DNA from: a virus
Virus record (IMG/VR): IMGVR_UViG_3300043185_000079
Strand: one strand, 5' to 3'
Length of the DNA: 64,000 nucleotides
Shown here: in pieces, positions 3,276 through 43,463 of the stretch
Layout: each line of letters starts with the position of its first letter
Position numbering within the stretch: position 1 is the stretch's first letter
Notes under the pieces: model-generated
Database searches by the model: none
What the model saw: the letters and a program-made list of their open reading frames with translations, nothing else
What the model was told of the DNA's origin: nothing
Position numbers and translations under genes: made by a program

Positions 3276-4397
3276 ATGAGCCCGCTCGACGCCGTCATCC
3301 TTCGCCTTGCGCGCCACAACAATGATTTCCGCAAGGCACTTCGCGAGGAGATCGCGAAAGCTGGGGCTCGAAACGTTCAGTCCAAGCTGACAAAACCGCA
3401 GGAAAAGATCCTAGCAAAGTACATGGAACAAGGGGGCAGCGCGCAATTTTTCGATGATCTGCCCTCAGCCGTGCAGGCGAGTCTGCGGCGTCTGAAGGAT
3501 CAGGAAACGCTGCACATGGACGCGGACAGATGGTTGTCGGATGCGAGCCTGCGGCGTCGGGCATCCGAGGCGTTTCGTCCCCCCAAGGGAATCGCGGCAG
3601 CAGTTCATGACGGAAAATTGCCTGCTCAAGTTCTGCTGATCTGGAAGTACGTCGCCGAGAAGATGGGAGACCACTTCGACTACAGCGGTGCCGTGTCCTA
3701 CTGGAGGGCGAAGTGCAAGAAGGAGGGGATCGACCTGCCCCCCGAGTTCATCACGGGCCTCGGGGGCAAGGGCGTCACGGCGAACTTCCCCCACAAGACC
3801 GGCGAGCAGATCGAAGACTGGGTCCGCGCGAGACTCAAGAGCGAGGGTCTCATCGCCGAGGCGGGCCAGACGGCGGCCGAGATTGGCCTGTCCATCACGA
3901 GCATCGAGCAGAAGATCCGCGAGGCGAAGACCCGCGTCGAGCAGCACATGCGCGGCATCGAGATGGGCGAGAAGGTCACGCAGCGGAAAAAGTGGCTGGC
4001 CAAGGCGCAGGAGGAACTCGTCGCGCTGGAGCGGCAGCTCGAGGAGGCTCGCCGCGGAGTCACCGTCATCGAGGAGGCAGCCCAGCGTCACGAGGACCAC
4101 CACGCGCCCAGCGTATCATTCGAGGAGCAATTCCAGAAGCTGCTCGCGGAGGCGACGAGGGAGATGTCTCAGCAACAAGTGCTGGACAAGGTGCTCCGCT
4201 CGCTCGCCGAGTTCAACGCTGGGCTCAAGGCTGCCGAAAGCTCCGCGCGCGTGGCAGTTCTCGGAGATCTCTGGGGCGTGCTGGAGCGTGTGTGGGACAA
4301 GATCAAGGGTGTTGTGGCCAGCATCGGCCGGTGGGCGAAGGGACTCTTCTCCTCGGCCACGAAGCTCAATGACCTCCTCGACAAGGCCGGGGCTTGA
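3276..4397 (+). CDS. modular coiled-coil protein with N-terminal ILRLA..DFRKAL motif (putative virion-internal protein)
   Basis: 373-aa ORF with strong codon bias; its N-terminal motif is shared with 8826 and 42309. The function is an inference. Confidence 0.6.
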   Translation: MSPLDAVILRLARHNNDFRKALREEIAKAGARNVQSKLTKPQEKILAKYMEQGGSAQFFDDLPSAVQASLRRLKDQETLHMDADRWLSDASLRRRASEAFRPPKGIAAAVHDGKLPAQVLLIWKYVAEKMGDHFDYSGAVSYWRAKCKKEGIDLPPEFITGLGGKGVTANFPHKTGEQIEDWVRARLKSEGLIAEAGQTAAEIGLSITSIEQKIREAKTRVEQHMRGIEMGEKVTQRKKWLAKAQEELVALERQLEEARRGVTVIEEAAQRHEDHHAPSVSFEEQFQKLLAEATREMSQQQVLDKVLRSLAEFNAGLKAAESSARVAVLGDLWGVLERVWDKIKGVVASIGRWAKGLFSSATKLNDLLDKAGA

Positions 4398-4483
4398 CGT
4401 CGCGTCCGGTCTCGGGTAGAACCCACAGGTCGGCACGGTGCCGGCATCGATCCCCGACCCACGACCACGAAAGGAGCCAAGCG

Positions 4484-4540
4484 ATGTCAGCCGCGACGTA
4501 TCGTCCCTATCCTTGGCTCCGCGGGTCGTGCGGGGCGTGA
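4484..4540 (+). other. putative leader peptide MSAATYRPYPWLRGSCGA inside a long hairpin
   Basis: AAAGGAG RBS; GGAGCCAAG (4473-81) pairs with CTTGGCTCC (4512-20), CACGACC with GGTCGTG, and CCCCG with CGGGG. Confidence 0.45.
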
Positions 4541-4597
4541 TCCAGGCCGAGACCTCGACACACGCCAAGCAGCCCGCGGAGCGGCCCTGACTCACTC

Positions 4598-4684: not shown

Positions 4685-4688
4685 CCGA

Positions 4689-4771
4689 CGGTCGGTGACC
4701 CGAGCGGCAATGGGGGCGGACTGTAAATCCGCCGCGTTCGCGCTTCGCAGGTTCGAGTCCTGCCCGGCCGA
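4689..4771 (+). tRNA. tRNA-Tyr(GTA)
   Basis: CCC-GAGCGGCAAT-GGG D arm, GCGGA-CTGTAAA-TCCGC, long variable arm, GCAGG-TTCGAGT-CCTGC; acceptor CGGTCGG/CCGGCCG; no encoded CCA. Confidence 0.92.
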
Positions 4772-4814
4772 CGACAAGACGAGGACAGCCCGGAGAGACA
4801 GGTAGAAACGAGAC

Positions 4815-4951: not shown

Positions 4952-4960
4952 GACGTGAAG

Positions 4961-5832: not shown

Positions 5833-5833
5833 C

Positions 5834-6973: not shown

Positions 6974-8431
6974 GTGCTAAACTACCGAAATCTCGTGAAG
7001 AAGTCGCGCCACTTCTATCTCCACCCGGAGACTAACCCAGGGAAGGTCGCTGCCCTGGAAGCCCTCCACGCCGAGTACGTCAAGTACGTTCGCATCTGCG
7101 TGCAGACCATGATCGACAACCAGAGGCTCAATCTCAAGCGGTCCGAGAAGCAGGCCTTCTTCCAGAAGTCTGAAAAGCTCACGAGCCAGATCCAGAAGAA
7201 CGCCCGCGACCACGCCATCCAGATCGTGAGTACTTGGGCCCAGGCCACCTACGAACGCGCCATCAAAAAGCACCTCACCCAACTCCACAGGTTCGGCCAG
7301 GTCTCCCAGGAGGAACGTCATGCCCTCTGCACCGTGGGAAAGCACCTGATCTCCAATCCCTGGAAACATGTCACCCGGGAGGCCATCGACACCTACTGGT
7401 CCCTCCTGCTCGACCCGGAGATCTCTGGCAACCCTCCCAAGGTGTCCGACCGCATCCCCATGCGGATGTCGGAGAACACCTGCATGCTGGCCGACGCCGA
7501 CGAGGCCGTGGTTGCCCCCATGTGGATCAAGATCTCCACGCTGGCTTCCAGGAAAGTCGTTTGGCTCCCACTCAGTGGAAACCCCTACGTCGAAAAGGCC
7601 GACGACGTGAGCAAGGGAGTTCACGCTCGGAAGGACAAGAGGGGACGCTGGAGGTTTGAGGTCGTCGAGCGCAAGGAGTGGGTCGTCCCTGAACCTCAGC
7701 CAGACGCGCCTAAGATCGGAGTAGATGTCGGTTTGAACGTGGTCACGGCTACATCGGACGGCCGGACGTTTGGTAAAGAGTTGAAACCTAAGTTCGACAA
7801 GCTCTACGAGCGAGTCAGGAATCTCCGGGCGAACCGTCAACGTCAAGGATTGAAGGGGAACAGCCCAAGGCTCGACCGTCTTGAAGACAAGCTCACCGGG
7901 ATGGTGAAGACGATCGCCGGAGAGGTGGCCAACAAACTCGTCAAGAGCGCGCCAGAGGGCACGGTGTTCGTGATCGAAGATCTCGACCTTCGTGGGTGTC
8001 GGGGCCAAAAGAGGTTTGCGTACCGGGCCTTGGCCCGGAGTTTGGAGACGAGGGCGCCGGTGATCAGGGTGAACCCGGCGTACACGTCCCAATGCTGTCC
8101 CTCCTGTGGCTACGTCAGCCGGTCCAACAGGAGGGGAACCGATTTCGTCTGCCGTTCATGTGGCAGGCGTTCTCACGCCGACGTGGTGGGAGGGATCAAC
8201 CTGCTGAGACGTTCTCAGGACGAACAGGTTGGTCTTGGAGATCACCATCGAGACGTGAGGGAGTTGCTGCGAGCGCGATTCCGACTTGCCCGTCAGGGCA
8301 TGAGGACCAGTTCCGCAGGACTGAAAACCGCGCCTGTACCGTCAGGCCGGAGGCTTACTACCGGAGCATCGCCGTCATGGCGGGGCCGGCACAGCCTCGA
8401 ATCAGGAACCCAAGTTTTCCCAAGTTCCTGA
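6974..8431 (+). mobile_element. tnpB: IS200/IS605-family TnpB (RNA-guided endonuclease), no adjacent tnpA
   Basis: RuvC-I IGVDVGLN, RuvC-II FVIEDL, VNPAYTSQCCPSCG, FVCRSCG, HAD...INL; lower GC than the flanks; imperfect hairpin at about 6914-6942 resembles a left end. Confidence 0.92.
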
Positions 8432-8448: not shown

Positions 8449-8829
8449 GTGCAGAGATGCCCCGCGTGCAGGAGAGATCAGCCGGTCGACATGTTCCGCG
8501 GGGAGACGTGCTCGGAGTGCTGGGCACGCCTGCCTGCGACCATCCGGGTCGTCGTTCCCCAGGATTGGCAGTCTGATCCGCGAGGTCTGCCGGAGATGCG
8601 GGCCGACGTCGACGACGAGGCGTGGACCGCCTCGCGCGGAGCCTGGACGCTTGAGGTCCGGTGGAGGGGGAAGCTCGCGGTCTACGAATGCCGAGCCCTG
8701 CGGACGGGAGATCCGGTGGCGCCCCAGGTGGCCAGCCTCGCCTACCCCCACGAGGTGCTCGACTGGATCGGGGCCTGGCTGAGACAGGCGGCCGGTAGCG
8801 GGCCTATGGGCTCCCCGCAGGCAGGATGA
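8449..8829 (+). CDS. Zn-ribbon hypothetical protein
   Basis: GTG 5 nt after GG-TAACGT; CPAC...CSEC. Confidence 0.7.
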   Translation: MQRCPACRRDQPVDMFRGETCSECWARLPATIRVVVPQDWQSDPRGLPEMRADVDDEAWTASRGAWTLEVRWRGKLAVYECRALRTGDPVAPQVASLAYPHEVLDWIGAWLRQAAGSGPMGSPQAG

Positions 8830-9824
8830 ACACGATCCTCCGTCACGCGGCCCTGAACCTCGCCCGAACCAGGCCCGAGTTTCGCGAGGCCTTGCGCGAG
8901 CAGCTCCGAGCCTCAAACAGCCGGCTCGCCGTTCGGGTGCCGATGAAGAAAGAGATCATCGACAAGTCTCGTGCCGCCGCCGAGATCCTCTTTCACGCGA
9001 GGGGCCAACGCCAGGGCATCCGACTCTATCAGGATCTCTTGCAGGATTGGCTCGACACCTATGCCCTGGGCATGTCGGACGTCCCTACCGAGTTCGAGAA
9101 TAAGATCCGCGAGGTGAAGAACGCCACCTACGAACTCGACCACGCGATTGGAGATGTCGCGCACAGAATGGAGGCGCTCGCCCGCGACATCGAGCGGTAT
9201 AAGGGAGACTGGCGTCCCAGAGTCTACGCCTCCGAAAAAGAGGCGCTGGGCCGCCTGCCGATGGAGCGCCGGCACTTCCTCCCGCCGGCCGCGCGAGATA
9301 AGGCCCCCCTGGAACCCGATGGCACGGATCTCCAGATCTGGACTTGGGAGAGCGGCGGGGCGATCTACGGAATCGCCTTCGCAGGCAAGGCTAATAAGCC
9401 GCTGTGGCACCTCAGATTCATGAGCGAGGGCCGACGCGATCAGATGATCAAGGAGACGATCGAGTCTAGGAAACGATCCATCGAGACGAAGCTCCAGCGC
9501 ATGAAGGAGCGCAAGGAGTTCCAGCACGACTACAAGGTCGGCGATATCCTCGACAGCTCCTGGGGGTACGACCAAACCAACCACGATTTCTACGTCGTCA
9601 CGAAGGTGATCGGAAAGCAGATCGAGATCCGCGAGGTCGCGAAGAAGGTGGTCCGAGAGGAGAGGACGGCAGAGTACGTCGTGCCGGTCCCCGCCCATTT
9701 CGTGGGACCCCCGATGCGGAAGACTCCGCAGAAGGGCGGCTATGTGCGCCTGACGTCGTACTCGTCCGCGAGCAAGTGGGATGGGAAGCCGAAGTACCAG
9801 ACGGCCTTCGGGTACGGGCACTGA
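8826..9824 (+). CDS. modular protein with N-terminal LNLARTRPEFREAL motif
   Basis: GGTA-N6-CTAT at 8794-8807; C-terminal module GDILDSSWGYDQTNHDFYVV resembles a common phage hypothetical domain. Confidence 0.7.
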   Translation: MNTILRHAALNLARTRPEFREALREQLRASNSRLAVRVPMKKEIIDKSRAAAEILFHARGQRQGIRLYQDLLQDWLDTYALGMSDVPTEFENKIREVKNATYELDHAIGDVAHRMEALARDIERYKGDWRPRVYASEKEALGRLPMERRHFLPPAARDKAPLEPDGTDLQIWTWESGGAIYGIAFAGKANKPLWHLRFMSEGRRDQMIKETIESRKRSIETKLQRMKERKEFQHDYKVGDILDSSWGYDQTNHDFYVVTKVIGKQIEIREVAKKVVREERTAEYVVPVPAHFVGPPMRKTPQKGGYVRLTSYSSASKWDGKPKYQTAFGYGH

Positions 9825-9871
9825 CGATGAGCAGAACGATGAGCAGAACGATGAGCAGAACGATGAGCAGA
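9824..9871 (+). repeat. 12-bp tandem repeat x4 (ACGATGAGCAGA)
   Basis: Perfect copies, each carrying an in-frame ATG. Confidence 0.95.
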
Positions 9872-10669
9872 ATTCAAAGGGGAATCACGGAGCTGCGTCT
9901 CGCCAGCGAGATGCTCCGCACTGCGGGGGGCACGGACTTCTCGGTGTTCGTCCGCGGCACCGATCCACGCAAGGCGTTCCAGGAGGCCGTGGCGGACGCT
10001 CGACACGAGCACGGGCACGGCGGGTACTCCGGCTCCATCGCGGAGAAGAGTGACTTCAAGCTCCGCAGCTCGACCCCGATGACGCGGGACGAGGCCCACG
10101 CGTTCATCAACAAGGACATCGAGAGGAACGAGAAGTGGGGCCCGGCCTTCGCCGTCCCCATCGCCGAGGGCAAGGTGCTCCGCGAGAGCACGAAGACCGT
10201 CAAGGTCCAGGCCAAGAGCGCGACCTTCGCCGCCGAGGAGGCGCGGAAGCTCCTGACCAGCCAGGCGCGCGCCGGGTCGACCGTCGAGGTCGCCGTCGAG
10301 CACGGCTCCATCAAGGCACTCAAGGCCGGGTCGCCGCCGAAGGTCGAGAAGTCGAAGGGGACGACCTCCTACTGGACGTTCGGTCTGAGCTACGACCGTC
10401 CCAGCGACTGGGCTCCCGACCGTGGTGGAAGATTCAAGGATCGTGCGGGAGCCATGGCCGCGCTCAAGGAGATCTTGGCGGTCAAGCCTGGACGCGAGCC
10501 TCCCTCCAAGGGGGCCCACTACACGGTCTGGAAGGTGCAGCAGACCGACGTCGTCAAGGTCGTCGAGGAACCGTCCAAGCTGCCGTCGTGGGAGGTCACG
10601 GCCAAGGTGCGCGAGGTCCAGAAGGGGACCGTGGTCGGGTACATGTTCTACGGCATCGCCAGCGACTAG
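9827..10669 (+). CDS. hypothetical protein with RTA-ended leader and a GHGGYSGSIAEK domain
   Basis: Strong codon bias; it starts inside a 12-bp x4 repeat, so the start is ambiguous (9827, 9839, 9851 or 9863). Confidence 0.75.
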   Translation: MSRTMSRTMSRTMSRIQRGITELRLASEMLRTAGGTDFSVFVRGTDPRKAFQEAVADARHEHGHGGYSGSIAEKSDFKLRSSTPMTRDEAHAFINKDIERNEKWGPAFAVPIAEGKVLRESTKTVKVQAKSATFAAEEARKLLTSQARAGSTVEVAVEHGSIKALKAGSPPKVEKSKGTTSYWTFGLSYDRPSDWAPDRGGRFKDRAGAMAALKEILAVKPGREPPSKGAHYTVWKVQQTDVVKVVEEPSKLPSWEVTAKVREVQKGTVVGYMFYGIASD

Positions 10670-14106: not shown

Positions 14107-15750
14107 TCAGAAGCTCACTTCGACGAGATAGCGAATCCGCTGGCGGTTGACGTTGAAGAGCACGTGCTCGTCATTCTGGACAGACGTGTGTTCTGGATAC
14201 GCGGCGATGCTGTCGTGTCCCGCGGGACAATCGGGGACGCTCCACATGGTAGATTTGGCCATGTAGGGCTTGCCCATGATCGCATCGCACAGGAACATGA
14301 AAGCTCCGCGCCCACGGATGGCACCTGACGATGACGAGTAGAGAGCCTTCGGGGAAGAGACATAGCCAGCACTTTTGCCGCGGTCGGTCGCCGCGTACCA
14401 GCCCGCTCCGAAGGCCGATCCCGTGATGTGCACGCCCTTGAGCGCCTTCGGGAGCCGGAAGTTCGTTTGCATGATCGGAGCAATGTTGACCGAGCGCGTT
14501 CCGTGGATCGCGAGGAACGCGTTCGCATCTCCGTACCAGTCGCCGATGTCCGAAGTGTCGGGGCGACTGCGGGGTTGGAGTCGGGCCTTCTCGAGGCGAT
14601 TTCCCTTGCGGAGGCTTGCAACCTGCCTGATCTCGTTCACGAACAGGTCGTCGACCCGAGGACGCTTGACGGAGAAGATGTTGTGGACCGTCCACCTCTC
14701 GCGCAGGTGTCCGTGGCGATTGTTCGTCATCGACAAGTACGAGTCATAGACCCACTTCCCGAGACCGTTCTTCTGATCGATCCACTCGATCTCGGCGTTG
14801 AGCACTTCGCAGGGGTCCAGCTCGTCGTCCTTCCGCTCCTCGACGTCGAAGTCCTCGTTGCGCAGGGCGGCCTCAAAGGCGTCGAGGTCCTGCTGGATCG
14901 AGAAGATGTTGTTCTGGCTCAGGAGGACCGCGCTGGGATCTCCGTTGCGAGGGATGGGCCGCGGCACGATGGTGGCCACGTAGGTCGAGAGCTGCTGGAG
15001 CCGCTTGTCCTTGAGCTGGGCTTCCTGGTCGGGCCCGATCTTGGCGAGGAGCGTCAACGCGTCCGGGATCAGCTTGTCGCGGACCTCCTCGATGGCCGAC
15101 ATCGTCGGGACGATGCCGGTGCTCTGCTGCGCGGCTCGGGCGTAGTCCTGCGTGCCGCCGACCAGCGCGCGTGCGAGCGCGACGACCTGCGGCTGCGCGT
15201 CCACCCTTTTGCGGGGCGTCGCCTTCTTCTGCGCCTTCTTCTCCGGGGCGCTCGCCTTCTTCGCCACGCCCTCGTCGTCCTTGATGAGGTAGGCGTCGGG
15301 GAGCCCCCGCTCGCGGGTGGCGAGACGCTGGATGACGTAGCCGTCCTTGCCGGCCTTGCCGACCCACAGCGTACTCGACCCGACCTTCTTCTGCTCCAGC
15401 CGCTTGACGTTCTTGTCGCGGCACTGCTTCTGGAAGAAGTCGCGCGCCTCGGCCTCGGTCGAACACTGGACGAACTGGAAGTCCTGGCCTCGGAAGCTGC
15501 CGTTCCAGCTCTTACCTCCGGTCACGCGGCCCCACTCCAGGTACACGAACCACTTGCCGGCCGAGGACACGACGCCGGCGTGGTAGTACTTGTTGTTGTT
15601 CGCGTCACCGAACTGGTTGACGCAGACCATGTCGGCGATCCCGACCTCTGAGCCGAAGTCGTCCTGGTCCTTGGCCGGACGACCCTGGTACTTGAACGAT
15701 GCCGGATCCATTTTCGACGGAACTTCCTTGCGACCGAGCTTCGTGGGCAT
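14107..15750 (-). CDS. WGR-domain PARP-like ADP-ribosyltransferase
   Basis: NNNKYY...EWGRV (WGR); catalytic HGTR, FGAGWY, KSAGY, MFLCDAIMG, GHDS, NDEH...RIRYLVE (H-Y-E triad); AGGAG RBS before ATG 15750. Confidence 0.9.
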   Translation of the reverse strand: MPTKLGRKEVPSKMDPASFKYQGRPAKDQDDFGSEVGIADMVCVNQFGDANNNKYYHAGVVSSAGKWFVYLEWGRVTGGKSWNGSFRGQDFQFVQCSTEAEARDFFQKQCRDKNVKRLEQKKVGSSTLWVGKAGKDGYVIQRLATRERGLPDAYLIKDDEGVAKKASAPEKKAQKKATPRKRVDAQPQVVALARALVGGTQDYARAAQQSTGIVPTMSAIEEVRDKLIPDALTLLAKIGPDQEAQLKDKRLQQLSTYVATIVPRPIPRNGDPSAVLLSQNNIFSIQQDLDAFEAALRNEDFDVEERKDDELDPCEVLNAEIEWIDQKNGLGKWVYDSYLSMTNNRHGHLRERWTVHNIFSVKRPRVDDLFVNEIRQVASLRKGNRLEKARLQPRSRPDTSDIGDWYGDANAFLAIHGTRSVNIAPIMQTNFRLPKALKGVHITGSAFGAGWYAATDRGKSAGYVSSPKALYSSSSGAIRGRGAFMFLCDAIMGKPYMAKSTMWSVPDCPAGHDSIAAYPEHTSVQNDEHVLFNVNRQRIRYLVEVSF

Positions 15751-21018: not shown

Positions 21019-21234
21019 GGGCTCTCTCGCAAGAGAGAGCCCTATAGACGGGTTAGCCTACGGAGCGGACAGCCCGCGAGGCATCTTTTCGACCTGTGCA
21101 CATCCCGTTCTCATCGTGATTGCCCCACTGCTTCATGACAGCGGCACATCTACCGGTTCGGGCTCGTCTATCGAGGCATTGATCGCGAATTGCTCATGCC
21201 CACTTGGGCTGCGCTATACGAGCGATGTCGTGTC

Positions 21235-22570: not shown

Positions 22571-22701
22571 CGATGATGATTCTATCGGCGTCCCAGGCTC
22601 GAAGGGGCCGATCTCCTCATGAAGAGCGACACCGAATTCATGGAGCAGCTACCGAGACACTTCTGGGGAAGATGTCTATGAGGCAACCGCGAGGCAAGCA
22701 A

Positions 22702-23649
22702 ATGGCTTCAAGGGTGGCAGCGCGATGGCTCGTCCGCTTGGCGTACGAATTCAGCCTCGATGAGGCGTACAAGTTCATGGGTCTTAGCCCGGGTGCGTCA
22801 CCCGACGACATCAAGACGGCATACCGCAATCTCACGCTCAAGTACCATCCCGACCGCGGCGGGGATCCAGAGGATATGAAGCGGCTCAACGCCGCGCGTG
22901 AGGTCATCGAGAGCGGAGGCACGGTACGACGACCATTGTCACCCGAATCCACCGTGCGCGAGGAGACGATCTGGGAGCGCTACCGCGCCCGGTACGGTCC
23001 GCAGGCGAGCGGGACGTATGTGGATACCGACCTACAGAAATTGGCTCAGGACGTGCTGGACAAGAACCTGCGACAGATCGTCACCCGCGGGAAGGTACCG
23101 TGGGTCCCGGTCGACGCCGGCGTGCCGCAGGGCGGACGCTGGACCTACCATCGCCCGTTCGGGTCCAAGATCAGGACGCAGCGACTGCCAGACGACGTCG
23201 ACGCCGACAAGCTGTACCAGGCCATCCGCAGCTTCGGGAAAGGCAGCATCTTTGACGTCGTCGTCAAGAACAAGGAGGCGTGGGTGACCTGGGAGCACCC
23301 CGACGGCAAGTTCCAGTCCCTCAGCTTTGAGGAGGTGAAGGCGAAGCCCAAGAAGCCGCCGGGCGTAGGCATGAAGCCCGAGGATGCGGCACAGCGCATG
23401 CGAGCGGGCGGCCTGGACGTCGTGGCTGGAGGATCGAAGTACGGGTACTGGGGCGTCAGGGGACAGCGCGAGAAGACGGGATACTTCATCCGCGAGGCCG
23501 CGAAAACGTTGCGCGTCGTTCACCGCGTGAAAACCGGCGACTACCGGGGGATCCAGGATCATCCTCTCGCAGGCGAGATCTACTTCGGGAAACTCACTCC
23601 CGAGACGCTCGACAAGTGGATCGAGTTCGTGAAACGGAAGGCCGGCTAA
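22702..23649 (+). CDS. J-domain (DnaJ-like) protein with ASRVAARWLVRLA leader
   Basis: AY..MGL...AS..DIK.AYR.L..KYHPDRGG...MKRLNAA. Confidence 0.85.
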   Translation: MASRVAARWLVRLAYEFSLDEAYKFMGLSPGASPDDIKTAYRNLTLKYHPDRGGDPEDMKRLNAAREVIESGGTVRRPLSPESTVREETIWERYRARYGPQASGTYVDTDLQKLAQDVLDKNLRQIVTRGKVPWVPVDAGVPQGGRWTYHRPFGSKIRTQRLPDDVDADKLYQAIRSFGKGSIFDVVVKNKEAWVTWEHPDGKFQSLSFEEVKAKPKKPPGVGMKPEDAAQRMRAGGLDVVAGGSKYGYWGVRGQREKTGYFIREAAKTLRVVHRVKTGDYRGIQDHPLAGEIYFGKLTPETLDKWIEFVKRKAG

Positions 23650-30114: not shown

Positions 30115-31341
30115 TCAACTCCTCATCCACAGCTTCAACTCCTCATCCTCACGCACCCCAACCACAGGTCCGCGGGGGAGTCCGCCGTCCCTGATATGGG
30201 GGTCGACGAGCGTCAGCGCTTGATTGCGATTCTGCTCGTCCGGCAGTCCGTCAGCGTAGCTCATGAACCCCTGGCGCAGCAGATCCCTCGGGAGTGTCTG
30301 GGAGTACTGCAAGATGTCCTCGCAGTCCCCGATCCACGTGCACAAGTCGCGGTGGCTGAACTCGCCGAAGAGGTTTTGCTCGTCCACGGCCTTGCGCAGC
30401 GCACTCACGGCCGCGCCGATGGCACCGAACATGTGACCGCACCGCTCGTCGAAGATCGGGAACTTTGCTCGGAGGACGGGTTCCTCATCATCCCACGCGA
30501 GCTGATGGAATTTCACCTTTCGCTCGATGCGGTTGATGATCGAGCTGTCGAGGACGTTGGCACTGATGCACTTGCCCGACGCGTCACCTCCGCCCATAGT
30601 GTTCGCCGTGATCACGATGCGCGTCCCAGGCAACACCGGGTACGTCTCACCTCTTGGACCCTTGACGCGCCCCTGGATCGTATCGGCGACGAGTCGGATG
30701 GCTTCGGCTTGCGAGCGCCCCGCTCGGTCGAAGTCGGACAGGAGCACGAGCATGGGCACATGGCGCCCCGTTGGGCTCTTGTAGCCCTCCACGAGAGCCC
30801 GAAACAGCTCGCCGAACTCCCACCCCGTGCCTCCGGCACTGAGGGTCTTGTCATAGAACCAGGTCAGGATGTCCACGTCGGGGTTGATCGGGAAGATCGC
30901 GCTCGGCGTTCGGGTCAGCGCGCACACGGCCGACGGCAGCGCGTCCTTGCCCGCACCCGTAGATCCCCAGATCCACGTGCTTCGCCCGGCTCGGAAGTAT
31001 CGAAGCGCCCGCGCGACGTCTTTGCCCAGATCGCCAGCCGTGGGGAGGCGGTAATGCGCGGGGAGAGGCAGGCAAGCGCTCTCCGGCACGTCCCAGTTCA
31101 CGGGGAAATCTACGTTGCCGATGCGAATGCGAAGTTCTGAGGGATCGGGCGCGCGGCGCCGGCGGAGCCGCGATGCCCAATCTGCGTGGCGTCGGGTAAT
31201 CTCCGGCGACTCGACCGGGGCATCGGGAAACTGCGTCAGGTATGTCTCGACGGACATCCTGTGGATCTCGGCGAGGTGGGGGGCGAGGAGGAGGTGTTCC
31301 TCCCCGTCCAGCTCGCAACGGACTCTCTGTGCGGTCGGCAT
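30115..31341 (-). CDS. MoxR/CobS-like AAA+ ATPase with N-terminal Zn/MucR-like module
   Basis: Walker A GSTGAGKD, Walker B LLSDFDR, ITANT.G.G sensor, LD.S.INR. Confidence 0.9.
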   Translation of the reverse strand: MPTAQRVRCELDGEEHLLLAPHLAEIHRMSVETYLTQFPDAPVESPEITRRHADWASRLRRRRAPDPSELRIRIGNVDFPVNWDVPESACLPLPAHYRLPTAGDLGKDVARALRYFRAGRSTWIWGSTGAGKDALPSAVCALTRTPSAIFPINPDVDILTWFYDKTLSAGGTGWEFGELFRALVEGYKSPTGRHVPMLVLLSDFDRAGRSQAEAIRLVADTIQGRVKGPRGETYPVLPGTRIVITANTMGGGDASGKCISANVLDSSIINRIERKVKFHQLAWDDEEPVLRAKFPIFDERCGHMFGAIGAAVSALRKAVDEQNLFGEFSHRDLCTWIGDCEDILQYSQTLPRDLLRQGFMSYADGLPDEQNRNQALTLVDPHIRDGGLPRGPVVGVREDEELKLWMRS

Positions 31342-34119: not shown

Positions 34120-34417
34120 CCGCGTCGACGTGCAGGCCGGTGCCGCCACCGATCTCACGGTGGCCTCGCGCTCTCCGGCTCCGGCCGTCGCCTTTCTCTA
34201 CCTGGCCTGGAAGATGGGCGCAGATCGTCGGGCGAAGCGTTCTCGGACGCGAGGGGCGGTTGTTCGACGCACAGCTAGTGGTCGATGTACGCCTTGGCTC
34301 AGCGGCACCAGTAGATCTCTGGATCCGTGCCTACGACTCTTATTCCTCGTGAATGGCGCCGGATTGCTAGAGAGGGCCCTCGGCGGTAATTGGCTTATCG
34401 GGGGCCAGATCGTGAGA

Positions 34418-35788
34418 ATGGCCGAGGCCGACCACACAGAGCACTACTTCACCGTCCGCGGCCGGGGCTTCGACCAGAAGAGCTGGAGGACGATCCTGTC
34501 GGTCGTCCGTCAGATCGTGGATGATGCTCGCGAGAACGGTGTTGACGCGACGCTCGAGGGCGACGCTCGACGAGTCATCGTGTCCCCTTCGGGCGAAGGA
34601 ATGCCGCTCGTGATCTGGCGGACGGGCCAGCCCAACATCCCGGAATGCGTCACGGCCACGCCCCCGTTCGACGCCCTCGTCGAGAGCGTGCTCTCCGGGG
34701 TCAAGAAGATCGCCCCGGACATCTTCGAGATGACATCACCGGATGGACGGGACTACCGTCGGATTTTCGCCGACCAGGCAGCCTCGAGAAAGCAAACAGC
34801 CATGACGACCGAAGAGATCATCAGGAAGGCTGCCATCAGAGTGGCTGCCGGCACCCAGGACAAGGTGCTCAAGAGGGAGCTGCTCACCATCTTGAAGGAC
34901 TCCGTCGAGCACTGCGGGGACGAGGGGTGCGCGAGCGAAGAGAAGGAATCTCGTCACGAAGAGGGTAAGTCGGTCGACATCGGGGACTGGCTCCGCGACC
35001 ACGGGTACGAGGAAGCCGCAGACAAGTGGGAGAAGCATGAGGGCAAGATCGAGGAAATCGGCAAGTCGGCCTCCGCGGTCGTCTTTCCCGAAATCCGAGA
35101 TCTCGCGTGGCGCTACGTGCTGGAGTTCTCCGCCGCGAAGCCGACGTCGAAGCTCGCCGCCGCTTCGACCGCGACAAAAGCCGCCGCCGCGGAGCGTATG
35201 GCCAAGAAGTGGATCTCCGACGCCATCAAGCGTCCGGGTCGGGTGCACGAGTATCTCGGGATCCCCGAGGATCAGACGATCCCGATGGCGAAGCTCGACG
35301 CGGCCATCGAGAAGGTTAAGGCCACCGGCAACAAGTCGCTCCTGGCTGCTCTACAACTGGCCAAGCGCCTGAAGGGGATGAAGAAAGCGGCGGCCCCGGA
35401 CAAGGCTGCGGCGAAGTGGAAGACGATGCCCAAGGGGTGGACTGACGAGTCTCGCAAGAAGTTCTGGGAGTCGCTCACTGGTCGGTCCCCGAAGCACAAA
35501 GTCACCGCGTGCATCAAGAGGATGGAGGGCAACGTGTCGGACGCCGGAGCGTTCTGTGCTGCCCTCGCTGATCGTGTCCTCGGCACGACCGACTGGCGGG
35601 GCGAGGACCGCACGGCCCGGGCCAATCCGTTCGACAACGACCGGGTTCGGGCGAGGATCGCATCGACCAATCCGTGGATATCGTACGCGGAAATGGTCGA
35701 TCTCTGTCCCTCGTGTGCAGAACGGATGCACAACCATGGGATCACGCGGATCCACGCCAGTGTCATCCGCCGACTACTCGGCGCTTGA
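34418..35788 (+). CDS. polyprotein-like modular protein with multiple [RK]xA junctions
   Basis: GGTA-N6-TTAT upstream; IIRKAAIRVAA..KRELL motif; modules KKWISDAIKRPG.. and AKWKTMPKGWT.. each follow an RxA or KxA site. Confidence 0.7.
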   Translation: MAEADHTEHYFTVRGRGFDQKSWRTILSVVRQIVDDARENGVDATLEGDARRVIVSPSGEGMPLVIWRTGQPNIPECVTATPPFDALVESVLSGVKKIAPDIFEMTSPDGRDYRRIFADQAASRKQTAMTTEEIIRKAAIRVAAGTQDKVLKRELLTILKDSVEHCGDEGCASEEKESRHEEGKSVDIGDWLRDHGYEEAADKWEKHEGKIEEIGKSASAVVFPEIRDLAWRYVLEFSAAKPTSKLAAASTATKAAAAERMAKKWISDAIKRPGRVHEYLGIPEDQTIPMAKLDAAIEKVKATGNKSLLAALQLAKRLKGMKKAAAPDKAAAKWKTMPKGWTDESRKKFWESLTGRSPKHKVTACIKRMEGNVSDAGAFCAALADRVLGTTDWRGEDRTARANPFDNDRVRARIASTNPWISYAEMVDLCPSCAERMHNHGITRIHASVIRRLLGA

Positions 35789-36727: not shown

Positions 36728-36805
36728 TCTTCTGCGTTGGGGGGTGAAATAGGGGCGCTAACAGCGATAGTTCGCCTATGGGGGCGGGCCCGATAGGGTC
36801 CGCCG

Positions 36806-37579
36806 ATGAGCAAGACTCAATCTACCGAAGACCAAATTGTTCGGCGCTTCGCCACTCGTCGTCTCGTTCGCGAGATGGTCGCGGACGGCGCGCGCATCGC
36901 CACGCGTCCGGCATCGCAGGGGCGTGACTACCGACTGTGGCAGGCCCTGTGTCGCATCGCTGATGAGGCGCCGGAGATTCTCGAGATGGTCCGCTCCGGG
37001 GAGGACCTGGAGCCCTGGCAAGAACATCGTCTGGAACTCGCGGCCGAGTACATCGACTCCGTCCACGACTCGCTCACCTGTCGACTCGACGCGAGTCCCG
37101 ATCCGGTCGAAATGGAAGTCGAAGAGGTACGGACCGCTGGCGCCCTGGACAACGCGGACGACACGTGGCCCAGTGAAAGCGACGACGTCCACACCCGAGC
37201 CGTTTTGGTCGCCCTCGACAGCCTCCTGGCTACGAACGAGATCGATGCCCAGGGGCGCGACCTGTTGCTGCGCCGGATGTTGGATCGATCGCGCCGTGAC
37301 CTGGGGGCCTCCAAAGTCCAGCAGGCACGGGTTCTCGCGGGGCGGATGCTGAACATCCTGGGGCGAATCGAATCTACCGGTCCTGTCAAGGCCAGGGCAG
37401 TCGCTGCAGTCGCTCTCAACGACATCGCATCATCCTCTCAACCGTGGGCACAGCAGCTCGAGAAGCCCATTACGTGGCTGGCGACCTACTTGTGGCGCCA
37501 GCTCGGACCGGAGGACCGGAGAGATGCCGCGCTTCTTCGCGCCAAGATCATGAGGGTGGCTCAGACCAGAGCCGAGTAG
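36806..37579 (+). CDS. modular hypothetical protein with IVRRFA leader and LRAKIMRVA tail
   Basis: GATA-N6-CTAT at 36766-79, then a 9-bp hairpin, then ATG. Confidence 0.7.
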   Translation: MSKTQSTEDQIVRRFATRRLVREMVADGARIATRPASQGRDYRLWQALCRIADEAPEILEMVRSGEDLEPWQEHRLELAAEYIDSVHDSLTCRLDASPDPVEMEVEEVRTAGALDNADDTWPSESDDVHTRAVLVALDSLLATNEIDAQGRDLLLRRMLDRSRRDLGASKVQQARVLAGRMLNILGRIESTGPVKARAVAAVALNDIASSSQPWAQQLEKPITWLATYLWRQLGPEDRRDAALLRAKIMRVAQTRAE

Positions 37580-37581
37580 TC

Positions 37582-38475
37582 ATGACGGAGAAGTTTGCCA
37601 GAGCCAGCGTGGAGCCTCGACGTCAGCGAACGCAGTACTCCTGCATGGCGTGCTCCATGATGATGTGCCTACGAGCGCACGGGATCGACTGCGACGAGGA
37701 CGAAGTGAACCGCACCATGGGAGCGCGTCCTATGCAGGGCGCGACTTGGGAGAGTGCCCTCGCCTGCGGCCAGCACTACGGGATGCGCTGCACCCTCGTG
37801 ACCCCCGCCACGCTCGGGCAGATCAAGAGTTGGACGGATCGCGGTGTGCCGGTGATGATCGCCTGGAATCCCGAAGGCCGCCCGTGGTCACATGCGTCGG
37901 TCATCTTCGACGTGGACGAGGACAACGTCCATGTCGCTGATCCAAATATCCCAGATCCAAGCGAGACGGTTCGGGTGGTTCCCAAAGCCGAGTTCTACAG
38001 CAAGTGGTACGAGAAGTGGCCCGACTACCTCGTGCGGCGGCCCGCGATGGCGGTCGAACGCGAGGTAACCTCCGATGGCCGGCAAGTCGTGGCGTCATCT
38101 CGACGCCAGATTTCCGCTGTGCAAATCGGCGAGGCGCTCGTGCGGGTCGGGACGACGCAAGAAGCAGTTAGGGGTGCGTACAATGATTACGTCCAGGCGG
38201 TGACGAACCTCGAGGCGGGGGCCGATCTCGTCGCCGTCGCCACCAACAGGCTCCGGGCACTCGGCTTTCCTCCCGACGAGACCACGTATCCGTTCGCCGA
38301 GAGCATCGAGGTGGTAGCGTCCGACATCTGGCGCTGGCGGAACAACATCGAGCGGATCTACGATCCAGACGATCGCCTCGCGGTGACACACAGGGTCGCA
38401 TCTCGTTTCCTTCAGGCAGAGCGGTACCCGGCGGAATGTCCAACATCGTCTTCCTCATTCGCTGGAAAGGAATGA
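37582..38475 (+). CDS. C39-like cysteine peptidase domain protein with RVASRFL tail
   Basis: QRTQYSC (Q..C), HASVI, VADP catalytic pattern. Confidence 0.8.
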   Translation: MTEKFARASVEPRRQRTQYSCMACSMMMCLRAHGIDCDEDEVNRTMGARPMQGATWESALACGQHYGMRCTLVTPATLGQIKSWTDRGVPVMIAWNPEGRPWSHASVIFDVDEDNVHVADPNIPDPSETVRVVPKAEFYSKWYEKWPDYLVRRPAMAVEREVTSDGRQVVASSRRQISAVQIGEALVRVGTTQEAVRGAYNDYVQAVTNLEAGADLVAVATNRLRALGFPPDETTYPFAESIEVVASDIWRWRNNIERIYDPDDRLAVTHRVASRFLQAERYPAECPTSSSSFAGKE

Positions 38476-38534: not shown

Positions 38535-39356
38535 ATGTCAGCACAGTACGCAAATCTCGGTGGTCGCCAGTTCGTGAACGAGGACTTCGTGAGCGACGTC
38601 CGCGAGCTGTACCCGCACTCGACGAGGAAGATTCCATTCGGGTGGAGTACGTACACAGGGTGGACTGGTAAAGACGAGGTGCTCTTCACCCGGCACGACG
38701 CGGTGGAGGGCCTTGAGGGGGACACCTACGAAGTCACGTTCGATCCGGTGAACCCGGCGGCGTTCGACGAGCGAATCCTCGGCGAAATCCAGCATGTCGT
38801 AAAGAGTGCGTCAGTCCCCATGGAACGGCAGGCCCGTGTTCCGAGTGGGCTCTACGGCTATGCAAAGTCCATTCAGGCAAGCTGCGAGTCCGCCTCGCGG
38901 CGGCTCAATCGCCGCGCCACCGACCTGGTGAAGAAGGCTGTCGCGCGTGACGCCTCGGTCCTCGGTTTCCTGGAGACGCATGCGCGTCGAGGGCCGAGTC
39001 TGGCCGCGCGGGTGCTCCTGGGGGCGTATGGGAGTTCGCTTCCCCGTCCCTCAGGGACTGTGACGGCTGGTGCCGTCAGGCTCGGTATGTACGGCTATCC
39101 GGCGAAGATCGCGAGGATCGCGTTGACGGCGTGCCAGGCCCTCCGAGAGGAGGCTGGCATGCTGGCGGCGGATCTGCATGTTCGCCGCGCCGGTGTGCAT
39201 GCGAAGATCGTCGGCTTCCTGGGCGAACACTCCAAGACCGGAGGCTGCACTGCGAGCGGCCTGATCCTGTCCTGCTACCCCGAGGCCGATTTCCGGTTCC
39301 GTCGGACCGCCACGGTCACGGACTGGATCGCGTGGGACGAGTCTCCTACGACATGA
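38535..39356 (+). CDS. modular protein with two G[LM]YGY repeats
   Basis: AGGAG RBS; duplicated helical domain, each copy ending in FL..H.[RK].G..A...L..Y. Confidence 0.75.
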   Translation: MSAQYANLGGRQFVNEDFVSDVRELYPHSTRKIPFGWSTYTGWTGKDEVLFTRHDAVEGLEGDTYEVTFDPVNPAAFDERILGEIQHVVKSASVPMERQARVPSGLYGYAKSIQASCESASRRLNRRATDLVKKAVARDASVLGFLETHARRGPSLAARVLLGAYGSSLPRPSGTVTAGAVRLGMYGYPAKIARIALTACQALREEAGMLAADLHVRRAGVHAKIVGFLGEHSKTGGCTASGLILSCYPEADFRFRRTATVTDWIAWDESPTT

Positions 39357-40749: not shown

Positions 40750-41079
40750 GTTGTCCTCGCCTGGGCTCAAGAGCCGCAGCTAAGTGGGGTGCCGGTGTGC
40801 TCGGGTCCTGGACATGTCCTGAGACGGGCAGGTCAGTGGACGGAAGCGCGACCCTTCTACGGCGCGAGGTGTGGCCCTGTCAAGATTTCCGCAGCGATGG
40901 GCGTCAGCAGAACATTGGTGAGAGAAGTCCGTGGCTTGCGGTCCGATAGCTAAACTATTGGTGCCGAGCGGCCGGAAAGATTTTTCCTGTGGATAACTCG
41001 GGAGAGATCTCCCTTTGGTCGGACCGGGGTGCGGCCCCGTCGCTTATGCCTCTATAGGCGAGACTCAGCGGTGACCCCC

Positions 41080-42312
41080 ATGCCCGATTTTGCCGACCCG
41101 CTCGTGCGCCGCTACCTGCGAGCCGCCATCGAGCGGACCGCGCTATGGAACATGGACATGTTCGCGCGGCTGAGCGTGTTGGAGGGCGCGGCTGGTCGCA
41201 CGCCCGGTGAGTGGGTCCGCATGGGTGAGCGCGGGTTCGGGAAGGCGAAGGAGCACTTCGGGCCAGGCCTCGCCGCGGCCTGGTCGACCTCGGGGAACAC
41301 AGGGGTGTACGACGCGGCTGTCTCGTCGGCTGAGAAGACGCTCCGTAACGTGCCCGGGTTGGACGGAGCTGATCTCGTCCAGGAGATGATGGTGGGCTCC
41401 AGCAGCCCACGAGCGCCGAGCAATGGCAACGGCAAGACCGAACTCGTGGGTCCTCGAAGGCAACGGATCTTCTACTCCGTCGGCGAGACCGTCAAGAAGA
41501 TGGAGGGCGATGACAGGCTGCGATCGGGGGTCATCGGGCCCTCTCACCGCCACATCATCGCGGACATCCGACGCTGGGTACAGCGCGCGGCTCTGGATGA
41601 AATCGCGAGATGGAAGCGGCAACGCATCGTTCCGTTCAGCCCAGGGGAACCACAAGGACTGGATCCGCTCAGGACTCGAGGCGAGAGGATGACGGATGAG
41701 CAACGAGAGAACCTCGTGCTGCTCGCCCTCCGGAGTCCAGGGGGTCCCGGACGCATCGTGCAGGATGTCGTGGAGGAGTTGGTCGACCGGCGATTCCCAC
41801 CCGCGCAAGCCAAGATCGTACGGGCGTTCTTGGCGAAGATCGGCCAGGAAAAGCTGCGGTCCTCGGCCGAGATGGGGCGCCTGGTCAAGACTTTCGATCC
41901 GAACAAGTGGTGGACGCAGGCGTTCAACGTCGTTCGTCGCGAGATCATGGAAGAGATGGGCGTCTCGGCACAGCAGCTCACCAACGCGCTCGGAGGAGGA
42001 GCGAAACGCGTCTTCGACTTCATGCAGAAGGACGTGGGGCGCGACCCGAGGATCATCAAGATCGTCGAGAACCTCGGAGAGCAGATTGACCTGCTCGAGC
42101 CCGGGCTCGGCAGCAGGGTTGCTCGTTCGCGGGTGCCGGAGTCTCTCCCGGAGCACCAGCGCCCCGTGTCGCCCTTCTCGTCGTTGAGCAATTGGCTGGA
42201 GAAGGATGAGCACATGGAGTGGGGCACGCAGAGCAGTCCGCTCGCGCAGCCCTCTCGGGGCCCCGTCCCCTTGCGCGTGGCGTCTCGGTGGATTGCCGTT
42301 AAGAATCGTTGA
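41080..42312 (+). CDS. sigma-like protein flanked by LVRRYL..RTA leader and RVASRW tail
   Basis: Region-2-like GADLVQEM...WVQRAALDEIAR; HTH-like REIMEEMGVSAQQLT; GCTT-N6-CTAT upstream. The CDS is secure, the function tentative. Confidence 0.5.
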   Translation: MPDFADPLVRRYLRAAIERTALWNMDMFARLSVLEGAAGRTPGEWVRMGERGFGKAKEHFGPGLAAAWSTSGNTGVYDAAVSSAEKTLRNVPGLDGADLVQEMMVGSSSPRAPSNGNGKTELVGPRRQRIFYSVGETVKKMEGDDRLRSGVIGPSHRHIIADIRRWVQRAALDEIARWKRQRIVPFSPGEPQGLDPLRTRGERMTDEQRENLVLLALRSPGGPGRIVQDVVEELVDRRFPPAQAKIVRAFLAKIGQEKLRSSAEMGRLVKTFDPNKWWTQAFNVVRREIMEEMGVSAQQLTNALGGGAKRVFDFMQKDVGRDPRIIKIVENLGEQIDLLEPGLGSRVARSRVPESLPEHQRPVSPFSSLSNWLEKDEHMEWGTQSSPLAQPSRGPVPLRVASRWIAVKNR

Positions 42313-43463
42313 ACAGGAGGAATGCTGTGCTCCGTCGCATCGTGAAGACTACCATCGATCGTCCGGATCTCCGGCCCGTTCTCGTGCCTCTTGTGAAGGC
42401 AGCGCGATCCGGGGCTCTCGATCTGGCCGATCGTGCGCGCGCAATCCGATTTGCGTACTTTGTCCGCGACCGTGAGCTTCGTTCTGCCGTCGTCCGCCTT
42501 TTGGAATGCGTGTCGCCCTCGCCCGTGTCGCCTGCGCGCCTCGCTTCTCTCGTACGAGAAGCTCTCGCCGCGAAGGGAGTTGAGCGGCGAGTCCGAGTTG
42601 CGGCACTGCAACGCTTCGCCAAGTATGTGCCGGCCTTCCTCAAATGGGTCGAGACACAGTCGTTTCCCAACGCGGAGCTGAATCAAGACCTCAAGTTCTA
42701 CTCGCTGCCTCCCGAAGAACAGAAGAAGGTCTACGAGCGGTGGGGCACGTGGCGCAAACAATGGGCGGAAAAGTCCAAGCCGGAAGGCCTCTCGGACGAG
42801 ACGGTGCTCACCCCCGAGTGCTACGACGAAACGCAAGAGGGGGATCTGCTCTGGATCGCTTGGCGCCCCGACAAGCTGCACAAAGTTGTCGGCCGGGGCA
42901 AAACGAAGGGCGGCAAGTCTTATCTCGATCTGGTTCTGGTCGATCCGAAGGACACTTCCAAGGAGGGAACCCGCAGGTCGTTGTTCCGTTCCTCCGTGGA
43001 AGGGGGGGACGTCGAGATGCACAAGATGCCGAAGGTCGAGCCCGAGGAAATCGGGCTCGAAATCGAGGAAACCGAGCCGGAAACGGAAATCTCGTTTGAG
43101 GATGAGTCCGAGCCGGAAGTGGCCTCCACGGACGAGCCCGAACCGGATCCCGAAACAGCGCCAGACGAGCCCGAACCGCAGGGCAAGCGAAAACCGCGAA
43201 AGGACTCCGCCAAGGCGTCTGTTCCCGACAGCATCATCTCTTTGGCCACGCCAAAGAGCATGGGCCAGGCCATGGCGAAGAGGACGCGTGAGGGACTCAA
43301 AAAGATCACGGTCGGAGACGCCAAGAAACTGATCAAGAACATCGGTGAGGCCCTCGCTGATCTCGGCGGTGAGACAATGAAGAGTCTCCGGGCAGCCGGT
43401 TACACTGATCAGGCTCTCCGGGATCTTCAGTCAGAGCTGCAGCAGCACCTGGAAATCGTCTAG
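42309..43463 (+). CDS. modular protein with three tandem N-terminal helical motifs and an acidic linker
   Basis: LRRIVK..IDRPDLRPVLVPL, RAIRFAY..DRELRSAV, RVAALQRFA. Confidence 0.7.
   Translation: MNRRNAVLRRIVKTTIDRPDLRPVLVPLVKAARSGALDLADRARAIRFAYFVRDRELRSAVVRLLECVSPSPVSPARLASLVREALAAKGVERRVRVAALQRFAKYVPAFLKWVETQSFPNAELNQDLKFYSLPPEEQKKVYERWGTWRKQWAEKSKPEGLSDETVLTPECYDETQEGDLLWIAWRPDKLHKVVGRGKTKGGKSYLDLVLVDPKDTSKEGTRRSLFRSSVEGGDVEMHKMPKVEPEEIGLEIEETEPETEISFEDESEPEVASTDEPEPDPETAPDEPEPQGKRKPRKDSAKASVPDSIISLATPKSMGQAMAKRTREGLKKITVGDAKKLIKNIGEALADLGGETMKSLRAAGYTDQALRDLQSELQQHLEIV

Follow-up and report, generated by a model that had tools for sequence, protein, structure and literature searches.

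Two portable helical tags and an [RK]-x-A site on unrelated proteins of an uncultured huge phage: a candidate system for loading enzymes into the capsid

Eleven genes dispersed over IMG/VR virus record IMGVR_UViG_3300043185_000079 raise a question: why should proteins with unrelated cores share two short, helical peptides and tripeptides of the form [RK]-x-A? We examined this question in a 64-kb stretch of the record (63% G+C, part of an uncultured huge phage; hereafter "the window"), in related contigs, and in two cultured phages, Tunturiibacter phage Tunturi_5 and Bacillus phage G. The two peptides, here called tag A and tag B, are real portable modules; they reside mostly at protein termini or within polyproteins, and they are interchangeable. 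An address-and-cut system that would load enzymes into the capsid is the best explanation that we can offer for them. It fits the data but is not proven, and we place its probability at roughly 0.5.

The window has genes for RecD2, for RecA/UvsX, for a PARP/WGR protein and for a ribonucleotide reductase of class II type that contains a LAGLIDADG intein, along with a TnpB-like gene and many others of unknown function. When 20 kb of it were compared to GenBank phages by megablast, no near-identical DNA was found. Using the C39 peptidase gene (g37582; genes are named by their start positions) as a query, we recovered 44 related loci on IMG/VR contigs of up to 618 kb, several of which are syntenic with the window block from ~28.7 to 46.6 kb; individual loci are cited by L numbers. 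The same search with g41080 returned none, and in tblastn searches of GenBank phages g41080 and g38535 had no match, or one to LR745208.1 alone. The closest complete relative, G001 (230 kb), was used to read the head module, and the tags were counted in 992 proteins, i.e., those of the window, G001 and the other related loci. All eleven genes singled out in a preliminary description of the window are present (Table 1). That they have unrelated cores, as was claimed there, was borne out by BLASTP: the best pair among the eleven proteins was g3276/g8826, for which the aligned 24 residues are tag B itself, and no similarity was detected aside from the tag.

Tag A comprises about 12 residues and conforms to A-x-[RK]-[VIL]-A-x-[RK]-[YWFH]-[LIVM]. 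A simpler pattern, [RK][VIL]A..[YFWH][LIMV], occurs 90 times in the 214,140 residues of the window and the related loci; by our rough estimate from composition, ~13 occurrences would be expected. The occurrences gather at protein ends, with 28 of the 90 no more than 20 residues from the C-terminus and 27 no more than 30 from the N-terminus, and columns that the pattern leaves free are still conserved (Ala at -2 in 39 of ~75; Arg at +4 in 44 of 78). A hidden Markov model (HMM) of tag A, trained on relatives only with the window and G001 excluded, matched four times in the window at 6 bits or more (0.07 in shuffled sequences) and seven times in G001 (0.23 in shuffles). Over all 992 proteins there were 85 matches (32 N-terminal, 25 C-terminal and 28 internal), with fewer than one expected in shuffles.

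Three of the window matches are at the ends of named proteins, namely the N-terminus of g22702 (13.1 bits) and the C-termini of g37582 (13.0 bits) and g41080 (6.3 bits); the fourth is internal, in the doubtful open reading frame 2486. The match in the J-protein g22702 is independent of the training families; those in g37582 and g41080 partly reflect homology, because their families were in the training set. Among the instances of this motif listed in the preliminary description, those at the N-terminus of g22702 and the C-termini of g37582 and g41080 are upheld by the HMM, but those in g21018 (N-terminal, 3.7 bits) and g34418 (RMAKKWI, 4.7 bits) score low, and IVRRFA of g36806 is weak as a tag A. 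The LVRRYL proposed at the N-terminus of g41080 gains support from orthologues with RRVAERYL and LRVASRVL; indeed, g41080 has 11 orthologous loci, and the more complete of them have tag A at both termini. The C39 homologues provide a further illustration. They range from 186 to 1029 residues and their C-terminal parts are unrelated, and many share one end peptide (e.g., ARRVAHRYLERK, ASRVANRHLQAGK, or MASKIASKYLR followed by the stop).

Tag B is longer (~26 residues; consensus xLRxxLIRLAHxxPELRxxLLPLLK). Its HMM matched 37 times in the 992 proteins, again with fewer than one match expected in shuffles: 23 of the matches are N-terminal, four C-terminal and ten internal, and the related loci other than the window account for 35 (0.65 in shuffles). 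The scores for g42309 (15.3-15.4 bits) and g8826 (12.5 bits) compare to 0 shuffled matches at 8 bits or more. The copy in g3276 was found by regular expression and by its 46% identity to the g8826 tag, and the internal copy in g34418 is backed by the G001 orthologue (10 bits). These four instances of the second motif have support, but two others that had been put forward, AIRFAYFVRDRELR and KIMRVAQTRAE, are weak. The tag can occur more than once in a protein: one L025 protein has it at both ends, and a 1209-residue L025 polyprotein has three internal copies.

The distribution of tag B extends well past these loci. A 33-position profile, run against 1.84 billion representatives, found 3,738 protein clusters at E ≤ 1e-3; the stricter cut-off of E ≤ 1e-10 left 328. 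The best 150 matches carry 2-5 copies per protein and are 86-1780 residues long. The top matches are metagenomic proteins that are unnamed or called merely "hypothetical protein"; no Pfam family covered the motif in ten of them, and no C39 gene was found nearby in the gene context of two database proteins with tag B. Among 50,697 GenBank phages, tag B was present in LR745208.1 only. A profile search of whole records yielded 23 copies in G003 and two in G002; no match exceeded the threshold in G001, and Tunturi_5 and phage G had no copy.

The tags move between proteins. Tag carriers number 108 of the 992 proteins and fall into 47 unrelated clusters once the tags are masked, and orthologues swap one tag for the other; the claim that unrelated proteins share two short helical motifs is therefore sound. 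In the J-protein family, seven members have tag A as the leader, one has tag B and two have none; the two leaderless proteins begin at or next to the first J-domain residues. Orthologues of g36806 in L001/G001 and L002 have tag B where the window protein has an A-like leader. In an AlphaFold2 (AF2) model of the window J-protein, the tag is a detached helix with a predicted local distance difference test (pLDDT) score below 50, placed on a confident two-domain body.

The same units occur as separate genes in one phage and as parts of fused polyproteins in another. The C39 peptidase occurs on its own or joined to cargo units: in L004, L017 and L021 its partner is the g38535 unit, which in the window is a separate gene. 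The g8826 core (residues 139-332, a match to phrog_37844) forms the C-terminal unit of the 1209-residue L025 polyprotein, where it follows a copy of tag B. The C-terminal module of g34418 has a gene of its own in L025, led by tag B. Residues 22-106 of g3276 recur as an internal module, ending RTA/A (the slash marks the boundary), in a 692-residue L019 polyprotein, and a unit homologous to g42309 lies after tag B within a 1023-residue G001 protein. Multi-enzyme proteins of the tagged lineage include two from G001, of 2044 residues (Topoisom_I and a GNAT-like domain) and 854 residues (2H and PolyA_pol); the 1209-residue L025 protein contains two ParB-like units, with tags between the repeated units. 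Within the window, g34418 alone is clearly multi-module.

Two recurrent mini-modules were also observed in relatives. One, ARKKYLQEHPKADPKNHTV, comes directly after tag B; the other, KFEEGxDVPLDELPxELQxNVxxPPP, is upstream of g38535-type cores. Their loci are L025:3729-7355, L025:17006-18055, L016:601-1119, L025:2000-2344 and L019:11082-13157.

Where would such tags be removed? In 23 of the 36 copies of tag B, the tripeptide [KR]xA, which has a background frequency of 1.4% per residue, begins at an offset of 25-28 residues within the tag (LLPLLKEA-A); its positions beside tag A peak at -4 (15 of 83) and at +7/+8 (13 of ~80). It had been proposed that recognizable domains begin right after this tripeptide. 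Conserved boundaries of this type exist in three families: [KR]xA[KRAQ]A is just ahead of the C39 domain in 31 of 33 homologues; [KR]xA[AGS] precedes the conserved GLYGY core of the g38535 family despite non-homologous upstream sequence, with further conserved sites between the two repeats and ~13 residues from the end; and [KR]xA[FY]x[FM] directly precedes the J domain. However, several junctions are 4-8 residues early or overlap the domain start. The expected agreement between the junction and the start of stand-alone homologues was observed, in that J-protein homologues without a tag begin 0-3 residues from it. In the eleven named genes, [KR]xA[SAGT] occurs 35 times where 16.5 are expected (2.1-fold, z about 5), a count that is biased because the genes were picked by eye; in the other window genes, 30 were observed vs. 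43.5 expected. A depletion of the site outside cargo proteins was considered and dropped, because G001 gave a ratio of 1.11, compared to 0.69 in the window.

The site is also concentrated in head modules. That of G001 contains multi-enzyme proteins, acidic proteins that resemble scaffolds, a capsid protein that matches phrog_2522, and a portal and a head protease that both look interrupted by an intein, as judged by eye from the Cys starts and the ...YN/C and ...HN/C boundaries. This capsid protein is 90% identical to that of LR745208.1, 48% to that of Tunturi_5, 38% to that of phage G, and 28% to those of cluster C mycobacteriophages. Tagged polyproteins of G001 are encoded between the portal and capsid genes, and tag A is found at their junctions, e.g., immediately ahead of the CCA-type nucleotidyltransferase. 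When head-module sets were picked by position, [KR]xA[SAGT] was over-represented ~2-3 times, and mirror-image controls were not enriched. The G001 head module has 46 sites against an expectation of 21.5, and its mirror control has 22 where 22 are expected; in a ranking of all a-x-b-c words by enrichment, RxAS comes second there. In the Tunturi_5 head region, KxAS is the top-ranked word, with 10 observed vs. 1.9 expected. In phage G, genes gp4-gp21 have 27 sites vs. 8.6 expected (mirror control, 11 vs. 8.1), including sites at both ends of both the portal and the protease, whereas the other genes of the first 50 kb have 14 vs. 11.6 and show no enrichment.

The proteases of G001, Tunturi_5 and phage G look orthologous, sharing a conserved segment by visual comparison. 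The sole match of the protease orthologue was a weak one, to phrog_18299; PF03420 (S77) and PF04586 (S78) had no match in five related genomes, and Pfam Phage_capsid did not find the head genes of the relatives, although PHROGs did. The papers on phage G and on Tunturi phage report no cleavage specificity for the head protease. Judging from the counts, [KR]xA-(S/A/G/T) is probably the head-protease site of the phage-G-like lineage. The tags, by comparison, are an extra feature of an uncultured subclade, which has the C39 gene as well; the cultured relatives show the site signature only.

Two observations on head proteins may be recorded here. Residues 177-193 of the G001 capsid protein (L057:3317-4192) resemble tag A (RHDLRVARVYMNARDYA, 8 bits), which may be chance. 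In phage G (L058), head-region proteins from the genes at 4754, 9524, 16055, 17765 and 35181 have similar basic N-terminal peptides (LSRIKK.., LTRLKK.., LKRLIKK.., MSKKISRLKKTA.. and MKRLVK..). Phage G may have in this peptide a leader of its own that corresponds to the tags.

Tagged genes also appear to be regulated together. A promoter-like motif, G.TA[AG]-N5-CTAT[AG][AG]G, was identified upstream of them. The window holds ten CTAT[AG][AG]G sites (about 20 are expected from composition), and six of these are 11-30 nucleotides upstream of the starts of g3276, g8826, g21018, g22702, g36806 and g41080. The motif sits just upstream of the start codons at 22702 and 36806, which are thereby supported. 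Judging by gene order, all eleven named genes appear to belong to units headed by the motif. One such unit is probably g36806-g37582(-g38535); its extent was inferred from gene order, and the inclusion of g38535 is presumed. In G001, a matrix built from the six window sites picks out the orthologues of g34418 (15.1 bits) and g36806, a HAD/polynucleotide-phosphatase gene whose product has tag A at its end, and the capsid operon, where the motif is ahead of the gene that immediately precedes that of the capsid protein.

These observations can be assembled into the following scheme. In this huge phage, a member of the phage-G-like capsid lineage, a co-regulated set of proteins would be marked with one of two interchangeable helical tags, at a protein end or between polyprotein units, with a [KR]-x-A-(S/A/G/T) site between each tag and its cargo. 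Through the tags, the proteins would bind to the inner side of the procapsid as it assembles, either to its shell or to its scaffold. The head-maturation protease would then cut at [KR]xA, removing the tags and separating the polyprotein units, and the freed enzymes would be carried in the head and delivered to the host along with the DNA. Candidate cargo, here and in the relatives, includes the J-protein, the C39 peptidase, a DNA-binding protein, topoisomerase IB, RNA-repair enzymes and a ParB-like nuclease. The cargo-loading and processing system suggested in the preliminary description is thus favored in silico by the portability of the tags, by [KR]xA beside tags and in head proteins, and by the promoter-like motif shared with the G001 capsid operon. 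The narrower proposition that the tags are capsid-targeting signals strikes us as close to an even call. More tentatively, and with somewhat less than even odds, tags A and B may serve a large clade of uncultured huge phages as a modular address code of general use, in which tag plus [KR]xA would specify procapsid loading, release by the head protease and delivery to the next host. Such a code would be the phage counterpart of encapsulin cargo peptides, serving dozens of counter-defense and takeover enzymes under a dedicated late promoter.

Several points weigh against capsid loading. The scaffold-like proteins of G001 have no tag match above the HMM threshold, and thus no tag-binding partner was identified. 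Tunturi_5 and phage G have the [KR]xA[S] signature and lack both tags, so that head assembly in this lineage can do without the tags. Most of the tagged genes in the window are far from the head module, and tag B genes are spread across the whole 497-kb genome of G003. Several tags per polyprotein are not required for targeting. Part of the [KR]xA signal described previously consists of R-V-A and R-L-A within the tags, and the flanking sites could be part of the helix instead of cut sites. Finally, the boundary after the C39 domain, GRQ[VM][MV]AS, does not fit [KR]xA.

Some of these points would be accommodated if the tags were docking peptides for a hub other than the capsid, such as a replication or assembly compartment, a chaperone (e.g., the phage J-protein or host Hsp70) or a multi-enzyme complex, with [KR]xA still the head-protease code but unrelated to the tags. 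The scatter of tagged genes, which extend from 3 to 43 kb in the window and include 23 tag B sites in G003, the lack of tags in cultured relatives with the same capsid and protease, and the failure to find a capsid-side partner all speak for such a hub. Nonetheless, we regard it as unlikely: it leaves aside the tags in G001 polyproteins encoded between portal and capsid genes, the fixed offsets of [KR]xA beside the tags, and the promoter-like motif common to tagged genes and the capsid operon.

Another explanation, which we consider quite improbable, dispenses with targeting altogether: the tags would be protease-recruiting exosites or linkers between polyprotein units, and the copies in single genes would be leftovers of polyprotein fission. 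The 2-5 copies of tag B per protein, the tags between repeated ParB-like units in L025, and the presence of [KR]xA on both sides of a tag are in keeping with it. Yet most tags are at the extreme ends of single-domain proteins, where separation is needless, and leaderless orthologues exist.

A third possibility assigns the processing to the C39-type cysteine peptidase instead of the head protease, with the tags as leader-like recognition helices comparable to double-glycine leaders. The C39 gene is the best-conserved of its block (48-76% identity, mostly 57-76%, over ~170 residues in 44 loci), has tagged genes as neighbors and is joined to such genes in L004, L017 and L024; among the GenBank phages searched, C39 and tag B are both found in LR745208.1 only. 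This proposal is nevertheless very doubtful, as the head-module enrichment of [KR]xA[S] is also present in phage G and Tunturi_5, which have no C39, no Gly-Gly site follows the tags, and the C39 peptidase is itself cargo-like, with a tag and [KR]xA sites. That the motifs are chance products of an Ala- and Arg-rich proteome, a suspicion fed by that composition and by the weak instances listed, is already refuted and has almost no probability left: 4-35 tag matches were observed where shuffles gave 0.07-0.65, which establishes enrichment over the background, the tag B profile retrieves its thousands of proteins database-wide, and mirror-image controls are not enriched. We retain capsid loading as the preferred reading of the features collected in Table 1.

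Table 1. Named genes of the window, with their tags, and promoter-like motif copies
Feature	Position	Strand	Details
g3276, 373 aa, coiled-coil-rich	3276..4397	+	tag B, residues 7-30 (3294-3365)
g8826, 332 aa	8826..9824	+	tag B, residues 4-30 (8835-8915)
g9827, 280 aa	9827..10669	+	degenerate tag-A-like leader ELRLASEMLRTA (9890-9925) directly before conserved GGTDF core
g21018, 260 aa	20236..21018	-	N-terminal tag A SRRVAVAHMRRDA (20956-20991); regular expression at residue 12, HMM 3.7 bits
g22702, J-domain protein	22702..23649	+	tag A MASRVAARWLVRL, residues 1-13 (22702-22740), then RLA-YEF junction
g34418, multi-module	34418..35788	+	internal tag-B-like AAIRVAAGTQDKVLKRELLTILKD (34817-34897); tag-A-like ERMAKKWI begins Fusello_VP2-like DNA-binding domain (Pfam; 35180-35236); 9 [KR]xA[SAGT] sites
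g36806, 257 aa	36806..37579	+	weak tag-A-like N-terminus IVRRFATRRL (36836-36865)
g37582, C39-type cysteine peptidase	37582..38475	+	Pfam Peptidase_C39; N-terminal KFA-RA junction (37591-37599); C-terminal tag A THRVASRFLQA (38374-38418)
g38535, 273 aa, internally duplicated GLYGY module	38535..39356	+	5 [KR]xA[SAGT] sites
g41080, 410 aa	41080..42312	+	degenerate N-terminal tag A LVRRYLRAAIE (41101-41136); C-terminal tag A LRVASRWI (42271-42294)
g42309, 384 aa	42309..43463	+	N-terminal tag B VLRRIVKTTIDRPDLRPVLVPLVKAARS (42327-42410)
Promoter-like motif	3245..3265	+	11 nt before g3276, 23.8 bits
Promoter-like motif	8792..8812	+	heads g8826-g9827 unit, 19.0 bits
Promoter-like motif	21039-21059		before g21018
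Promoter-like motif	22664..22684	+	18 nt before ATG at 22702, 20.6 bits
Promoter-like motif, weaker copy	34383..34403	+	15 nt before g34418, 12.7 bits
Promoter-like motif	36764..36784	+	before g36806, 21.6 bits
Promoter-like motif	41040..41060	+	heads g41080-g42309 unit, 22.0 bits

Some of the named proteins merit additional comment. Pfam confirmed the identities proposed for g22702, whose J domain spans residues 22-69 (DnaJ, 1e-11), and for the C39 peptidase g37582; the sigma-like core ascribed to g41080 was not confirmed, having no Pfam match. The C-terminal domain of g22702 (residues 88-315; 22966-23646, + strand) was modeled with confidence (pLDDT about 90). A Foldseek search with the J-protein model matched the J domain only, and no convincing PDB match was found for the C-terminal domain. 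The g9827 gene opens with three and a half tandem MSRT copies (a 12-nucleotide repeat, 9827-9870, + strand), such that the true start could be any of four ATG codons; at the position of its leader, the L019 orthologue reads PTRVAFRSLIA/GGSDF. Members of the g38535 family, which had no Pfam or PHROG match, have an internal duplication of a ~80-residue module beginning GLYGY...C and are often fused to the C39 peptidase. In the L002-L040 homologues, the C39 domain ends with a conserved RRPA[ML]..E[IV]...G[RK]Q[VMLI][MV]AS (region 38035-38100 of the window), past which the sequences diverge completely; two homologues stop there. This end motif could be a self-cleavage or release site of a type other than [KR]xA.

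Other features of the window were recorded in passing. Between two tagged genes is a TnpB/IS605 OrfB-like gene (6995-8431, + strand; Cas12f1-like TNB domain and OrfB_IS605). The ribonucleotide reductase large subunit (46707-50678, + strand) is split by its intein (Pfam Intein_splicing and LAGLIDADG_3, residues ~654-1091). A second upstream motif, GTGTA(A/G)AA...N...CGTAC, is distinct from the CTATRRG motif of the tagged genes; it was found upstream of 14107-15750 (-), 30115-31341 (-), 31487 (+) and 59145 (+), i.e., of a PARP/WGR gene, the divergent 30115/31487 pair and an RlaP-type nucleotidyltransferase gene.

If capsid loading is correct, a sequence rule could list the injected protein arsenal of huge phages straight from metagenomes (tag B alone occurs in thousands of clusters), the cleavage specificity of the head protease in the phage-G lineage is predicted, and a small peptide handle becomes available for loading foreign proteins into phage heads. 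Should packaging be wrong, two widespread, unnamed and swappable peptide modules on unrelated phage proteins would still need explaining.

How does this putative system compare to known ones? In phage T4, internal proteins carry a capsid-targeting sequence that is removed by the prohead protease gp21, and propeptides in phiKZ and SPN3US are cut at AxE (PMC5694885, PMC10052503). As in those phages, unrelated proteins carry a short terminal peptide that ends in a protease motif, here predicted in silico ([KR]xA comes after tag B in 23 of 36 copies), and this motif is also frequent in the scaffold, portal and protease, here in the head modules of G001, Tunturi_5 and phage G. Cargo of T4 and phiKZ is thought to be ejected into the host, and we propose the same for the tagged proteins. 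The differences are that the present site is [KR]xA-(S/A/G/T) as opposed to [LI]xE or AxE, which end in Glu; that these tags are longer, of two interchangeable kinds, at either end or internal, and present in multiple copies; and that the protease, unlike gp21, matches neither Pfam S77 nor S78.

The polyvalent proteins of phages and conjugative elements are multi-enzyme polypeptides thought to be processed and delivered with DNA (Iyer et al. 2017, PMC5512222). In a term search of that paper, their processing was ascribed mainly to zincin-like, and in some cases assemblin-like, peptidase domains; C39 and linkers were unmentioned, and neither portable tags nor a [KR]xA code surfaced. The multi-enzyme units in or near the present head modules (topoisomerase IB with GNAT, 2H with a CCA enzyme, ParB-like repeats) are similar in kind. 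By contrast, many units here are single genes that carry a tag. Pfam scans of part of the proteins turned up no metallopeptidase.

Encapsulin cargo-loading peptides are short, conserved sequences at the N- or C-terminus of unrelated enzymes that dock inside an HK97-fold shell. The tags are likewise terminal and portable between cargo families, but the two share no sequence resemblance; the shell here would be a DNA-filled phage head in the context of a portal, protease and terminase, and the tags seem to be flanked by protease sites. Herpesvirus assemblin cuts its maturation site at Ala/Ser and frees the C-terminal, capsid-binding tail of the scaffold. That arrangement, with Ala at P1, Ser at P1' and a short C-terminal helix after them, recalls the C39-homologue ending ...GRQLMAS-KIASKYLR(stop). 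The present site, however, has a basic P3, and the tags are on enzymes instead of a scaffold. Encapsulin peptides and the herpesvirus site are thus analogies, not families to which the tag system belongs. The double-glycine leaders of bacteriocins, finally, are amphipathic, helical leaders on diverse substrates that are cut by C39 peptidases. They resemble the tags in being helical leaders on diverse proteins with a C39-family peptidase encoded alongside; the tags differ in having no Gly-Gly site (the positions after the tag are loosely [AG]) and no ABC-transporter fusion, and in occurring at C-termini as well.

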